Origin: Escherichia coli
GTDB lineage: Bacteria; Pseudomonadota; Gammaproteobacteria; Enterobacterales; Enterobacteriaceae
NCBI RefSeq assembly: GCF_009931435.1
Contig: NZ_CP043414.1
Reading direction: 5' to 3' (one strand)
Length of the DNA: 64,000 nt
Every line of letters begins with the position of its first letter. The stretch's first letter is position 1. The notes below the pieces were generated by a model. It was given only the letters and a program-made list of their open reading frames with translations. It was not told the DNA's origin and did not search any database. The position numbers and the translations under genes were made by a program. Of the stretch, positions 5,739-62,934 are shown piece after piece.

Positions 5739-7424
5739 TTGAAGAAGGTTTGGCTTAACCGTTATCCCGCGGACGTTCCGACGGAGATCAACCCTGACCG
5801 TTATCAATCTCTGGTAGATATGTTTGAGCAGTCGGTCGCGCGCTACGCCGATCAACCCGCGTTTGTGAATATGGGGGAGGTGATGACCTTCCGCAAACTG
5901 GAAGAACGCAGTCGCGCGTTTGCCGCTTATTTGCAACAAGGGTTGGGACTGAAGAAAGGCGATCGCGTTGCGTTGATGATGCCTAATTTATTGCAATATC
6001 CGGTGGCGCTGTTTGGCATTTTGCGTGCCGGGATGATCGTTGTAAACGTTAACCCGTTGTATACCCCGCGTGAGCTGGAGCATCAGCTTAACGATAGCGG
6101 CGCATCAGCGATTGTTATCGTGTCTAATTTTGCCCACACTCTGGAAAAAGTGGTTGATAAAACCGCCGTTCAGCACGTTATTCTGACCCGTATGGGCGAT
6201 CAGCTATCCACGGCAAAAGGCACGGTAGTCAACTTCGTTGTTAAATACATCAAGCGTCTGGTGCCGAAATACCATCTGCCAGATGCCATCTCATTTCGCA
6301 GCGCACTGCATAACGGCTACCGGATGCAGTACGTCAAACCCGAACTGGTGCCAGAAGATTTAGCTTTCCTGCAATATACCGGCGGTACCACTGGTGTGGC
6401 GAAGGGCGCGATGCTGACTCACCGCAATATGCTGGCGAATCTGGAACAAGTTAACGCGACTTATGGGCCGCTGTTGCATCCGGGCAAAGAGCTGGTGGTG
6501 ACGGCACTGCCGCTGTATCACATTTTTGCTCTGACCATTAACTGCCTGCTGTTTATTGAACTGGGTGGGCAGAACCTGCTTATCACTAACCCGCGCGATA
6601 TTCCGGGGTTGGTAAAAGAGTTAGCGAAATATCCGTTTACCGCGATAACCGGCGTTAACACCTTGTTCAATGCGTTGCTGAACAATAAAGAGTTCCAGCA
6701 GCTGGATTTCTCCAGTCTGCATCTTTCTGCAGGCGGTGGTATGCCTGTTCAACAAGTGGTGGCTGAACGTTGGGTGAAACTGACCGGACAGTATCTGCTG
6801 GAAGGTTATGGCCTGACCGAGTGTGCGCCGCTGGTCAGCGTTAACCCGTATGATATTGATTATCATAGTGGTAGCATCGGTTTGCCGGTGCCGTCGACGG
6901 AAGCCAAACTGGTGGATGATGATGATAATGAAGTACCACCGGGTCAACCGGGTGAGCTTTGTGTCAAAGGACCGCAGGTGATGCTGGGTTACTGGCAGCG
7001 TCCGGATGCTACCGATGAAATCATCAAAAATGGCTGGTTACACACCGGCGATATCGCGGTGATGGATGAAGAAGGATTCCTGCGCATTGTCGATCGTAAA
7101 AAAGACATGATTCTGGTTTCCGGTTTTAATGTCTATCCCAACGAAATTGAAGATGTCGTCATGCAGCATCCTGGCGTACAGGAAGTCGCAGCTGTTGGCG
7201 TACCTTCCGGCTCCAGTGGTGAAGCGGTGAAAATCTTCGTAGTGAAAAAAGATCCATCGCTTACCGAAGAGTCACTGGTGACCTTTTGCCGCCGTCAGCT
7301 CACGGGCTACAAAGTACCGAAGCTGGTGGAGTTTCGTGATGAGTTACCGAAATCTAACGTCGGAAAAATTTTGCGACGAGAATTACGTGACGAAGCGCGC
7401 GGCAAAGTGGACAATAAAGCCTGA
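5739..7424 (+). CDS. fadD: Long-chain fatty acid--CoA ligase
   Basis: ORF 5673..7424; start set at in-frame TTG ([13 protein letters not shown]...) for 561 aa; AMP-binding motif [12 protein letters not shown]. Confidence 0.85.
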
Positions 7425-7443
7425 GCGTTAAGTCAGTCGTCAG

Positions 7444-7469
7444 ACGCCGGTTAATCCGGCGTTTTTTTT
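7444..7469 (+). terminator. Rho-independent terminator of fadD
   Basis: acgccgg-ttaat-ccggcgt stem followed by T8. Confidence 0.6.
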
Positions 7470-16123: not shown

Positions 16124-16306
16124 ATGGGCAAAGCAACGTATACCGTGACCGTCACCAATAACAGTAATGGCGTTTCTGTCGATTATGAAACAGAGACGCC
16201 GATGACTTTGCTGGTGCCAGAAGTGGCGGCTGAAGTGATAAAAGATCTGGTGAATACCGTGCGTTCTTATGACACGGAAAACGAACATGATGTTTGTGGT
16301 TGGTAA
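16124..16306 (+). CDS. yoaG: DUF1869 protein YoaG
   Basis: 60-aa ORF MGKATYTVTVTNNSNGVSVDYETE... Confidence 0.8.
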   Translation: MGKATYTVTVTNNSNGVSVDYETETPMTLLVPEVAAEVIKDLVNTVRSYDTENEHDVCGW

Positions 16307-16453
16307 TTATCACTGATCGTAGATGGCGCAATTTCTGCGCCATCGCAAAAAAATCCTCCGTGATGCTTGTCACAAATCTTGCCCTCCTGATGTTGTGCTA
16401 TGCTTTTTATCAGCGACTAACCCGCTAATGCAAAACAGATAAGTGAGGAAACA

Positions 16454-16702
16454 ATGGGCATTCTGTCATGGATTATTTTTGGGCTTATTGCCGGTATTCT
16501 GGCGAAGTGGATCATGCCAGGTAAAGATGGTGGTGGATTCTTTATGACTATCCTGCTGGGGATAGTCGGTGCCGTAGTCGGCGGATGGATCAGCACGCTG
16601 TTTGGCTTTGGTAAAGTCGATGGCTTCAATTTTGGCAGCTTCGTGGTTGCCGTTATTGGTGCGATTGTCGTGCTGTTTATCTACAGAAAGATCAAAAGTT
16701 AA
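16454..16702 (+). CDS. yeaQ: GlsB/YeaQ/YmgE-family small membrane protein
   Basis: 82-aa ORF, glycine-rich TM helices. Confidence 0.85.
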   Translation: MGILSWIIFGLIAGILAKWIMPGKDGGGFFMTILLGIVGAVVGGWISTLFGFGKVDGFNFGSFVVAVIGAIVVLFIYRKIKS

Positions 16703-16760
16703 CGCGTAAATTGCACAAAGGCTGCACACAGGCAGCCTTTGCTATTTTTTAGATGTGACG

Positions 16761-16835
16761 TTACCACCATCCCAACTCAGTGCCGAGAACGACAATAATC
16801 GCTACGCCCATCATAATAATCGTTGTTTTTTTCAT
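16761..16835 (-). CDS. yoaJ: Small membrane protein YoaJ (24 aa)
   Basis: Hand translation of minus strand: MKKTTIIMMGVAIIVVLGTELGWW; not in ORF track. Confidence 0.75.
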   Translation of the reverse strand: MKKTTIIMMGVAIIVVLGTELGWW

Positions 16836-16837
16836 CT

Positions 16838-16936
16838 TTATGCTCCCGGGGCAGCATAGCCGCCAATAAAAAACCATGCTAAAAATACGACCGCTGTAAT
16901 AAAGATTACAACCGGAAAAATAATACCGATTCGCAT
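16838..16936 (-). CDS. yoaK: Small membrane protein YoaK (32 aa)
   Basis: Hand translation of minus strand: MRIGIIFPVVIFITAVVFLAWFFIGGYAAPGA; stop lies 2 bp upstream of the yoaJ start. Confidence 0.75.
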   Translation of the reverse strand: MRIGIIFPVVIFITAVVFLAWFFIGGYAAPGA

Positions 16937-16968
16937 GTTATCACCAATCAAAAGGATGTGAATACGCC

Positions 16969-17994
16969 TCAGGAATGTAGCGCTGAATGCGCGACAAAAG
17001 GTGTTTTCTGTTTGTGTTTTTTCTCCTGATACATCGCGATATCGGCAGCATGCAGGGCGCTGTCTGCATCGGTCGTTTCAGGATCGACTTCTACTATGCC
17101 AAGACTGGCACCAGGATAATACAAATCAACATCACCTAAGTGATATTCTCCGCGTATTTGCTGTTGAATACGTTCTCGCAGCGATGGAATATCCGCATTC
17201 TCATTGTTCAGTGAAACAACCAAAAACTCATCACCGCCGAGACGACCAATAACTTCGCCATTTTGCTGGAGCGTATTAAGGCGCTCGCCAACCTGAATAA
17301 GAAACAGATCGCCACTATTATGACCAAAACGATCATTGATTAATTTGAAGTTATCCAGATCGATAAATGCGATCATTATCTTATGGTTAAGATGCCTCGC
17401 AAGAGAAAACAGCGTCGTCAGGTTTTCAAAAATCGCCCGCCGATTCGGTAGCCCGGTTAACGAGTCGGTATACGATTGCGCAATCAGTGCGGCATTGGCT
17501 TCGCGCAGCTGTTCAACCAGCGCCTCTTTTTGAATATATTGTGCAATCAGTCCGGCGAATAACTGCAAAACCTGTTCCGCGCGTTCACTCCACTGGCGCT
17601 TCTCACTGCTGGCGGCGCAAAGCGTGCCATAGAATGATCCATCCGGTAAGTGAATTGGCGTGCTCAGAAATGTGGTGATGCCAAGATTGCGTGCCGCAAT
17701 ACAGTCGCCCCAACGGTCGGGGACTTCATCGCTGAAAAAGCAGTTTTCATCAATGGCGCGTTTGCATAACGAGTAATCCCACGAGACGGTAAAATTCTCC
17801 GGGATGTGCATTTTCTGGCTGTTACGGGCAAACATTATATGCTGCAGGCGCGCTTCGACATCCACTTTGGTCAGGTAGGTTGATTCCATATCAGTGACCA
17901 TTTCCAGCATCTCCAGAAGCTGTCGGACCAGGCTTTCCAGTGACTGTTCTTTGGCAAGGGATTGCGAGACGCGGGCGATAATCTGATCTGACAC
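16969..17994 (-). CDS. dgcP: Diguanylate cyclase, GAF-GGDEF
   Basis: ORF 16969..18123; start set at in-frame GTG (VSDQIIARV) for 341 aa; intact RLGGDEF motif. Confidence 0.85.
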   Translation of the reverse strand: MSDQIIARVSQSLAKEQSLESLVRQLLEMLEMVTDMESTYLTKVDVEARLQHIMFARNSQKMHIPENFTVSWDYSLCKRAIDENCFFSDEVPDRWGDCIAARNLGITTFLSTPIHLPDGSFYGTLCAASSEKRQWSERAEQVLQLFAGLIAQYIQKEALVEQLREANAALIAQSYTDSLTGLPNRRAIFENLTTLFSLARHLNHKIMIAFIDLDNFKLINDRFGHNSGDLFLIQVGERLNTLQQNGEVIGRLGGDEFLVVSLNNENADIPSLRERIQQQIRGEYHLGDVDLYYPGASLGIVEVDPETTDADSALHAADIAMYQEKKHKQKTPFVAHSALHS

Positions 17995-21525: not shown

Positions 21526-21630
21526 ATGAACGATCAAATGTTCGTTGAGACACTGATTATCACGTCATCGTTTTTTGTTATTGCTGTTGTGCTAGTTTTG
21601 TCCGTTCTGCTTATTGAACGGACAGGCTAG
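21526..21630 (+). CDS. yoaI: Small membrane protein YoaI (34 aa)
   Basis: Hand translation: [34 protein letters not shown]; not in ORF track; stop abuts the yeaK stop. Confidence 0.7.
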
Positions 21631-62775: not shown

Positions 62776-62934
62776 TGTTGACTCCGAGTGCTGGTTATCT
62801 ATCCAGTGTAACAGGCGGGGAGCGATTAAAAAAGAGGCGGGTCGATGACAAAGGTTACACCATGAGACGTGCTACGCCTGTCAGGCCTATTCGACTCCTG
62901 CAATGTATTGAATTTGCATAGTTTTGTAGGTTGA

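Follow-up and report, generated by a model that had tools for sequence, protein, structure and literature searches.

The two short genes lying head to tail on the minus strand between yeaQ and dgcP, in the 64,000-nucleotide stretch of Escherichia coli DNA analysed here (hereafter the window), are very probably the protein-coding genes yoaK and yoaJ, each specifying a small membrane peptide; this assessment concerns identity, coding status and membrane-peptide nature, any partner of the peptides being a separate matter. The pair counts as already known, because its annotation, the detection of the tagged proteins, their membrane insertion and their cleavage by RseP have all been published, and it is thus an ordinary finding: both genes are catalogued, annotated and experimentally detected. 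Their recovery confirms that such genes can be found from raw sequence where length-based ORF tracks miss them.

Identity and coordinates of the two genes

The first-pass annotation had described tandem minus-strand genes of 24 and 32 codons separated by a 2-bp spacer. On re-reading, coordinates, lengths, strand and spacer proved exact, as did the location between yeaQ and dgcP (Table 1), and the two CDSs together occupy exactly positions 16761-16936.

Table 1. Features of the yoaK-yoaJ region, with positions in the window
Feature	Position	Strand	Description
yoaK CDS	16838..16936	minus	ATG at 16936, TAA 16840-16838; 32 aa, MRIGIIFPVVIFITAVVFLAWFFIGGYAAPGA
yoaJ CDS	16761..16835	minus	ATG at 16835, TAA 16763-16761; 24 aa, MKKTTIIMMGVAIIVVLGTELGWW
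Spacer, yoaK stop to yoaJ start	16836..16837	minus	2 nt, AG
yoaK Shine-Dalgarno-like motif	16941..16945	minus	GGTGA, the weaker of the two
yoaJ Shine-Dalgarno motif	16843..16847	minus	GGGAG, within the last yoaK codons (P-G-A)
dgcP (yeaP)	16969..17994	minus	cytoplasmic diguanylate cyclase; GAF residues 17-155, GGDEF residues 175-330
dgcP-yoaK intergenic region	16937..16968	minus	32 nt; no terminator-like site detected
Candidate internal promoter, dgcP 3' end	16974..17001	minus	block CCTTTTGTCG at 16992-17001; -10-like TACATT at 16974-16979
Hairpin shared by yoaJ and yeaQ	16716..16751	both	10-bp GC-rich stem CAAAGGCTGC/GCAGCCTTTG, hairpin at 16716-16741; terminator-like site on the plus strand
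yeaQ	16454..16702	plus	82 aa, Transgly_assoc/YeaQ; downstream of yoaJ, convergent

The names that had been proposed are supported by RefSeq, which labels the products 'YoaK family small membrane protein' and 'protein YoaJ', and by family models. YoaK matched the NCBIfam equivalog NF033821 with 69.1 bits (cut-off 32), residues 1-32 corresponding to model positions 1-32, and YoaJ matched the 24-position NCBIfam equivalog NF011343 over its full length with 60.4 bits (cut-off 54). Both peptides are letter-for-letter identical to E. coli K-12 YoaK and YoaJ, the second being YOAJ_ECOLI in an exact-cluster look-up. In addition, PF28021 (Pfam YoaK) is among the precomputed matches of YoaK orthologues, and YoaK fits the family motif M-[RK]-x-G-x-x-F-P ... 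A ... W-F-x-x-G-G-Y-A-x-P together with a single hydrophobic helix. The window pair also matches that of K-12 in its strand relation, its spacer of 2 nt and its neighbours, with dgcP lying upstream and yeaQ running towards it, and shows no difference of substance. A 901-bp region covering the locus is present in 5418 of the 5426 complete E. coli genomes, where RefSeq annotates both yoaK and yoaJ. Sequence identity of the window is 95-99% with most E. coli genomes and reaches 99.9% with strain Z0117EC0005. In one E. coli strain, the segment from leuE' through yoaK is deleted beside an IS1 element.

Both genes were said to have been missed by the ORF track. They are indeed absent from it, but a length cut-off is the sole cause, as both are listed when the minimum is set to 20 aa. 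At that setting they appear as longer ORFs with alternative upstream starts, of 38 aa (ATG 16877) and 37 aa (TTG 16951). These extensions are not conserved and, in Salmonella, an in-frame TAA lies two codons ahead of the yoaK ATG.

Evidence for coding, selection and expression

When the window's 590 ORFs of 20-50 aa that start with ATG are ranked by hydrophobicity, YoaK comes second (best 17-residue Kyte-Doolittle mean 2.98) and is the sole ORF at or above 2.5 with a Shine-Dalgarno-like motif; YoaJ, with a best mean of 2.26, also has such a motif. The decisive evidence that these frames are more than chance is their conservation across genera. A phmmer search of 1.84 billion representatives yielded 25 YoaK relatives, whose alignment gave the pattern WF[FI][IVF]GGYA. 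Scanning one genome per species with this pattern returned 80 loci from about 20 Enterobacteriaceae genera, and five more were added through exact-sequence look-ups. As the pattern was used for searching, the invariance of its residues and the open yoaK frame are partly a matter of construction. By contrast, yoaJ played no part in locus selection, so its frame is independently tested: an intact 24-codon yoaJ ORF, with the pattern M-[RK]-K-[TS]-T ... A12 ... G18 ... G22-W-W, follows yoaK in 71 of the 84 usable loci, at -4 to +3 nt from the yoaK stop. Conservation of the reading frames across Enterobacteriaceae, which had been suggested as a check, thus holds over the roughly 85 loci compared.

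Pairwise Nei-Gojobori proportions are consistent with this picture, with pN of 0.13 and pS of 0.69 for yoaK (pN/pS 0.19) and pN of 0.18 and pS of 0.63 for yoaJ (pN/pS 0.29), synonymous change being near saturation in both. In each gene the annotated frame has the lowest pN/pS of the six; other sense frames range from 1.1 to 2.7, and the mirror antisense frames reach 0.32 and 0.41. Variable columns at codon positions 1, 2 and 3 number 19, 10 and 28 in yoaK and 15, 10 and 21 in yoaJ. Judged from these substitution patterns, both frames are under purifying selection, and there is good support from the alignments for selection on specific residues, beyond hydrophobicity. Conserved YoaK positions comprise G4, F7, P8 and A15, which lie outside the search pattern, and W21, F22 and G25-A28, which are partly forced by it, while none of the conserved YoaJ residues (K3, T5, A12, G18, G22 and W23-W24) was used for selection. 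Frameshifts in yoaK or yoaJ were found in three assemblies (Citrobacter sedlakii, L015; C. amalonaticus, L017; Kluyvera genomosp. 3, L084). All of them fall in homopolymer runs, which makes them indistinguishable from sequencing errors, and they were therefore not counted as decay.

The same data bear on the notion that the region is conserved as RNA (a dgcP 3'UTR, a sRNA or a terminator), that the hydrophobic frames arose by chance, or that a type I toxin is paired here with an antisense RNA. Short ORFs do arise by chance, as the 590 in the window attest; moreover, a conserved hairpin follows yoaJ, the yoaJ antisense frame is open in 69 of the 71 loci, and the opposite strand has a promoter-like match at 16789-16817. 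However, substitutions pile up at third codon positions, the open antisense frame scores worse than yoaJ itself, as expected of a mirror frame, and a sigma-70 scan of the region stays at chance level (three matches versus 3.5 expected from shuffles). Rfam returned no match at E<=1 in 16300-17400, the NCBIfam scan matched the YoaK and YoaJ models only and no toxin family (Hok/Ldr/Ibs-like), and toxicity is unreported. Together with the published detection of the tagged proteins, the codon-position pattern and the Rfam result effectively exclude these readings, whose probability we regard as negligible.

Detection of tagged fusions, another check that had been suggested, is already in print (Hemm 2008, via citing papers, and a YoaK-SPA blot in bioRxiv 10.1101/511675); in the latter, Weaver et al. 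used chromosomally tagged YoaK-SPA as a low-abundance reference in stationary-phase blots. Akiyama et al. 2015 (PMC4597795), with reference to Hemm 2008 and Fontaine 2011, describe these small membrane proteins as expressed. According to the same paper, the N-in/C-out topology of YoaJ was confirmed by experiment, and HA-MBP-YoaJ is an integral membrane protein that co-precipitates RseP and is not cleaved. The first-pass annotation's view of both peptides as single-TM candidates agrees with the TMHMM assignments and experimental topologies given in Table S1 of a 2023 mBio paper (PMC10470546). That table gives an experimental N-in/C-out topology for YoaJ; for YoaK, the prediction is N-in/C-out and the experimental result 'dual', with Fontaine 2011 cited. 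The N-terminal KK of YoaJ fits the positive-inside rule, and YoaJ has been employed as an N-in/C-out membrane-anchoring tag for periplasmic display (PMC7558204).

Probable coupling of the pair and linkage to dgcP

In the 71 loci with an intact yoaJ, the gap between the two genes is 0 nt in 30, +2 in 24, -4 in 11, -1 in four and +3 in two. The predicted duplex of the yoaJ Shine-Dalgarno region with the anti-SD reaches -4 kcal/mol or lower in 96% of 68 distinct loci (median -6.8, versus -3.2 in shuffled controls). Ahead of yoaK, GGTGAT or GGTAAT is kept 4-9 nt from the ATG in most genera, and the anti-SD duplex reaches -4 kcal/mol or lower in 53% of 81 loci. This arrangement suggests that translation of the two genes is coupled. 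Given a junction of -4 to +3 nt and a strong yoaJ ribosome-binding site within the 3' end of yoaK, we infer that the peptides are co-made in coupled amounts; there is good support for their production from one mRNA via coupled translation, and they probably act as a pair.

The pair is presumed to form the distal part of the dgcP transcription unit. dgcP, yoaK and yoaJ share one strand and are set 32 nt and 2 nt apart, the intervals containing no terminator-like site, and an RNA-seq-based operon call groups yeaP-yoaK-yoaJ in K-12 (OperomeDB, PMC4620388). The T-run of the hairpin beyond yoaJ (fold -18.6 kcal/mol) is strong when read on the plus (yeaQ) strand but weak on that of yoaJ; a hairpin of -12 kcal/mol or lower follows yoaJ in 93% of the loci.

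A DgcP orthologue, at 99% down to 56% identity, is encoded by the gene immediately preceding yoaK, in the same orientation, in 63 of the 85 loci (Escherichia, Enterobacter, Lelliottia, the Citrobacter freundii group, Leclercia, Klebsiella/Raoultella, Kluyvera, Pseudocitrobacter and Yokenella). In three subspecies of Salmonella enterica, C. amalonaticus and C. sedlakii, dgcP is absent and yoaK-yoaJ is kept between yoaF and yeaQ. These dgcP-less genomes retain a remnant of the dgcP 3' end, with the block CCTTTTGTCG followed by a TGnTAT(T/C)CT extended -10-like element; at the same place, Enterobacter-like genera carry TACACT and the Klebsiella/Kluyvera/Yokenella group carries TATGAT. Such motifs suggest an internal yoaK-yoaJ promoter in many genera, for which the E. 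coli candidate is weak. As the E. coli TACATT overlaps the final codons of dgcP and its spacing is poor, transcription reading through from dgcP may be more important in this species. Of the sigma-70 matches, the one near yoaK (16962-16935) was disregarded, as it overlaps the start codon.

Sarenko et al. 2017 place dgcP under vegetative control, with lower expression in stationary phase; this speaks against RpoS dependence of dgcP, and an argument from sigma-S control was dropped. In UPEC, dgcP mRNA and protein are both higher at 37 °C. Production of c-di-GMP was sluggish when dgcP alone was supplied on a plasmid (PMC11327459). The supplement of PMC12890032, searched for co-regulation of dgcP, yoaK and yoaJ, held no entries for them.

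The best contextual candidate for a role of the pair is c-di-GMP signalling around DgcP, a proposal that we put forward only tentatively. As Salmonella keeps the pair without dgcP, DgcP cannot be the sole role. The DgcP link consists of synteny alone, mostly one inherited arrangement; many YoaK-like genes have no GGDEF neighbour, and others lie in prophages. Gene order across these genomes indicates that the linkage of the pair to dgcP is long-lived but dispensable.

YoaK relatives elsewhere and possible modes of action

A divergent YoaK (WFI, not WFF) occurs alone, without yoaJ or dgcP, in Kosakonia, Phytobacter, Dryocola, Buttiauxella and some misnamed 'Enterobacter'. Its immediate upstream neighbour in Buttiauxella-like genomes encodes a MASE5-GGDEF diguanylate cyclase, which is a second, independent GGDEF association of yoaK.

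Other divergent relatives are found in phages. Three prophages (contexts L088, L089 and L091) carry one in the immunity region, directly after a CI-type repressor gene. Similarly, a tblastn search located in the cultured lambdoid coliphages HK106, mEp234 and mEp506 a 32-aa homologue, MRIGIVFPILVFIVAMGFMAWFIIDGYATPSG, with 61% identity to E. coli YoaK; it is unannotated and lies about 105 nt after cI, ahead of hicAB-like genes. This cI-to-PL interval is where lambda carries rexAB. A Klebsiella phage homologue is annotated as 'CI transcriptional regulator', and in 6 of 5426 E. coli genomes PGAP gives the name 'YoaK family small membrane protein' to the prophage copy of HK106 type. Scanning IMG/VR revealed YoaK-like peptides of 30-34 aa in 70 viral contigs/loci (40 distinct intact sequences); in 53 of these contigs/loci the gene is preceded, in the same orientation, by one for a CI-type repressor (HTH_3 with or without Peptidase_S24, or Phage_CI_repr). 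Genes downstream of phage yoaK are hypervariable and include HicA, HipA_2, M78/IrrE, DUF7946/7947 and an SDH-type protease. Eight copies from phages, prophages and GGDEF-linked loci were inspected and showed no yoaJ-like partner, PHROGs and PADLOC hold no family for the phage or chromosomal peptides, and a link between YoaK and prophages was not found in the literature searched.

Like rexA-rexB of lambda and the hicAB-type cargo of mEp234 and HK106, phage yoaK occupies the interval after cI, on the cI strand, with variable cargo behind it, but the phage peptides show no homology to RexB or to known exclusion proteins. The window copy differs from them in being chromosomal and outside any prophage. 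The position of YoaK-like genes directly after the repressor gene, in IMG/VR contigs, coliphages and prophages alike, hints at a membrane function useful in lysogens.

These relatives bear on an alternative that we consider unlikely, in which YoaK would be a DgcP-independent general membrane peptide acting on a conserved inner-membrane target, temperate phages would use the same activity in lysogens (for example in superinfection exclusion or another lysogenic conversion), and YoaJ would be a partner added later in core Enterobacteriaceae. The phage copies and the dgcP-less genomes show that YoaK at least can work without DgcP, and the lack of yoaJ beside the Kosakonia, Phytobacter, Dryocola and Buttiauxella genes and the inspected phage copies is in line with a later addition. 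However, no exclusion or defence phenotype is known and defence and phage family collections hold no counterpart, the clades differ (phage WFI/WFV versus chromosomal WFF, at about 61% identity) so that functions may have diverged, and it would be left unexplained why the chromosomal clade has stayed so closely linked to dgcP for so long. A wider scheme, which must be regarded as quite improbable, would make YoaK a mobile family of 30-34 aa inner-membrane peptides on a conserved host target: lambdoid phages would express a cI-operon copy in lysogens, possibly for exclusion or host-membrane reprogramming, and core Enterobacteriaceae would have fixed the coupled YoaK-YoaJ pair at dgcP, where it might tie local synthesis of c-di-GMP to the state of the membrane.

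A bilayer or membrane-potential effect has been proposed for YohP. YoaK and YoaJ could likewise be stress-related peptides of this kind with no specific partner, or low-level RseP substrates cleared by quality control, a reading that also seems to us doubtful. Purified RseP cleaves both YoaK and YoaJ in vitro, and 3xFLAG-YoaJ levels drop with RseP activity (PMC10470546). Diamide reportedly induces YoaJ (Hemm 2010, as cited in PMC12542507), the low abundance of tagged YoaK fits, and the region is dispensable in laboratory growth: a yeaJ-yeaV deletion, which takes out both genes, grows normally in M9 glucose, and yoaK and yoaJ are listed as of unknown function in the same paper (PMC9769844). On the other hand, cleavage by RseP in vivo is tag-dependent and was not seen with chromosomal RseP, and as the in vivo assays differ between tags, both peptides were assigned to 'class II' (PMC10470546). 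Position-specific conservation exceeds the needs of generic hydrophobicity, and a coupled two-gene architecture kept across genera argues for a specific assembly.

Our working model is a co-made pair of single-pass inner-membrane accessory peptides. On the sequence and published evidence, YoaK and YoaJ are both translated and each inserts in the inner membrane as a single helix; in YoaJ, the N-terminus is cytoplasmic and the GWW end periplasmic. In vitro, both can undergo intramembrane cleavage by RseP, a site-2 protease. Analogy with AcrZ, MgrB, CydX and MgtS weakly suggests that the pair would most likely bind and tune a larger inner-membrane or membrane-associated protein; the remark in the first-pass annotation that small proteins often regulate membrane proteins amounts, for YoaK and YoaJ, to a generic expectation. 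The tight coupling, the dispensable dgcP linkage and the homologues in phage immunity regions narrow the functional experiments worth doing.

Several small proteins offer points of comparison. AcrZ binds AcrB, MgrB inhibits PhoQ, MgtS stabilises MgtA and CydX is a cytochrome bd subunit. Like these four proteins and YoaI, which is encoded in the same window, YoaK and YoaJ are shorter than 50 aa, have a single TM helix, reside in the inner membrane and are overlooked when a length cut-off is applied. MgrB and CydX are, in addition, RseP 'class II' substrates as YoaK and YoaJ are (PMC10470546). In contrast, partners are known for AcrZ, MgrB, MgtS and CydX and none is known for YoaK or YoaJ, and there is no sequence similarity between the two sets. 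Unlike AcrZ-type regulators, YoaK and YoaJ form a coupled pair, encoded downstream of the gene for a soluble enzyme and not beside a membrane complex.

Candidate promoter and changes at the yoaK-yoaJ locus

The dgcP gene has been lost in Salmonella and in C. amalonaticus/sedlakii, but the 3' end of the gene survives there as a remnant, CCTTTTGTCG, and is followed, just upstream of yoaK, by an extended -10-like element, TGnTAT(T/C)CT. These sequences suggest a candidate internal promoter for yoaK-yoaJ, which in E. coli would overlap the end of the dgcP coding sequence. When the whole window was scanned, no Rfam gathering-level match was found in the vicinity of yoaK-yoaJ, the only two in the window being the distant sRNAs sroD and ES036/CssrF.

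One of the 5426 complete E. coli genomes searched, that of strain 700481, carries a natural deletion of the gene pair: an IS1 element replaces the 3' part of leuE, yeaR, yoaG, yeaQ, yoaJ and yoaK, and its boundary lies right at the dgcP-yoaK intergenic region. Two other Escherichia loci have no yeaQ downstream of yoaJ: yeaR comes next in E. albertii (L011), and leuE follows directly in Escherichia sp. MOD1-EC7003 (L080), where yeaQ, yoaG and yeaR are all absent. Single-base frameshifts affect yoaJ in C. sedlakii (L015, about 2600-2625), and yoaK in C. amalonaticus AUH_CA_2023_1 (L017, about 2590-2600) and Kluyvera genomosp. 3 YDC799 (L084, 2501-2535). All three lie within A, G or C homopolymer runs, and may be either assembly errors or true pseudogenes; an A7 run is also found within the start of E. 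coli yoaJ.

Features at yoaK-yoaJ and related loci (L-numbers, comparison loci with their own coordinates)
Feature	Position	Strand	Source
dgcP 3'-end block and -10-like element	L002/L003 2900-3000; L032, L015, L018 about 2400-2500; window 16974-17001
IS1-associated deletion, E. coli 700481	L087 1815-3031		NZ_CM129038.1
sroD sRNA	window 7383-7468	+	Rfam, 115 bits
ES036/CssrF sRNA	window 62883-62925	-	Rfam, 42.9 bits
yoaI (34 aa)	window 21526-21630	+
MASE5-GGDEF/yoaK-like arrangement	L085 1348-2596; L082 970-2596; L090 1883-3135
YoaK homologue, phage HK106	L092 2501-2596 (30464-30559)		NC_019768.1
39-aa YoaK-homologous ORF, Klebsiella phage	L093 2480-2599		MK448237.1

GGDEF genes and yoaK-like genes

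Independently of dgcP, an association with GGDEF is seen a second time in Buttiauxella-like genomes: near zntB/ttcA, a MASE5-GGDEF diguanylate cyclase gene is followed by a divergent yoaK-like gene, located directly after its end or overlapping it. The window itself encodes a second very hydrophobic small protein, the annotated small membrane protein YoaI, in the same 10 kb as three GGDEF genes (cdgI, dgcJ and dgcP).

A yoaK-like gene of Enterobacteriaceae type is present on a contig titled Chryseobacterium sp. 18061 (L065), and the peptide that it encodes also occurs, unchanged, in "Citrobacter sp. 18056" (L067) and "Enterobacteriaceae bacterium 89" (L066). The Chryseobacterium record is probably mislabelled or contaminated.

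YoaK-like peptides in phages and prophages

Seventy IMG/VR viral contigs (L094-L163) encode YoaK-like peptides, with 40 different intact sequences of 30-34 aa, for which PHROG and PADLOC have no family; prophage loci with such genes are L088, L089 and L091. A CI-type repressor gene lies upstream on the same strand in 53 of the 70 contigs, and 3' neighbours are hypervariable (HicA, HipA_2, M78/IrrE, DUF7946/7947). No yoaJ partner was found beside the eight phage, prophage and GGDEF-linked copies inspected.

Among cultured phages, a Klebsiella phage carries a YoaK-homologous ORF labelled "CI transcriptional regulator", and the lambdoid coliphages HK106, mEp234 and mEp506 encode a YoaK homologue of 32 aa that has no annotation. 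It lies downstream of cI, at a distance of about 105 nt, in the interval that rexAB occupies in lambda.
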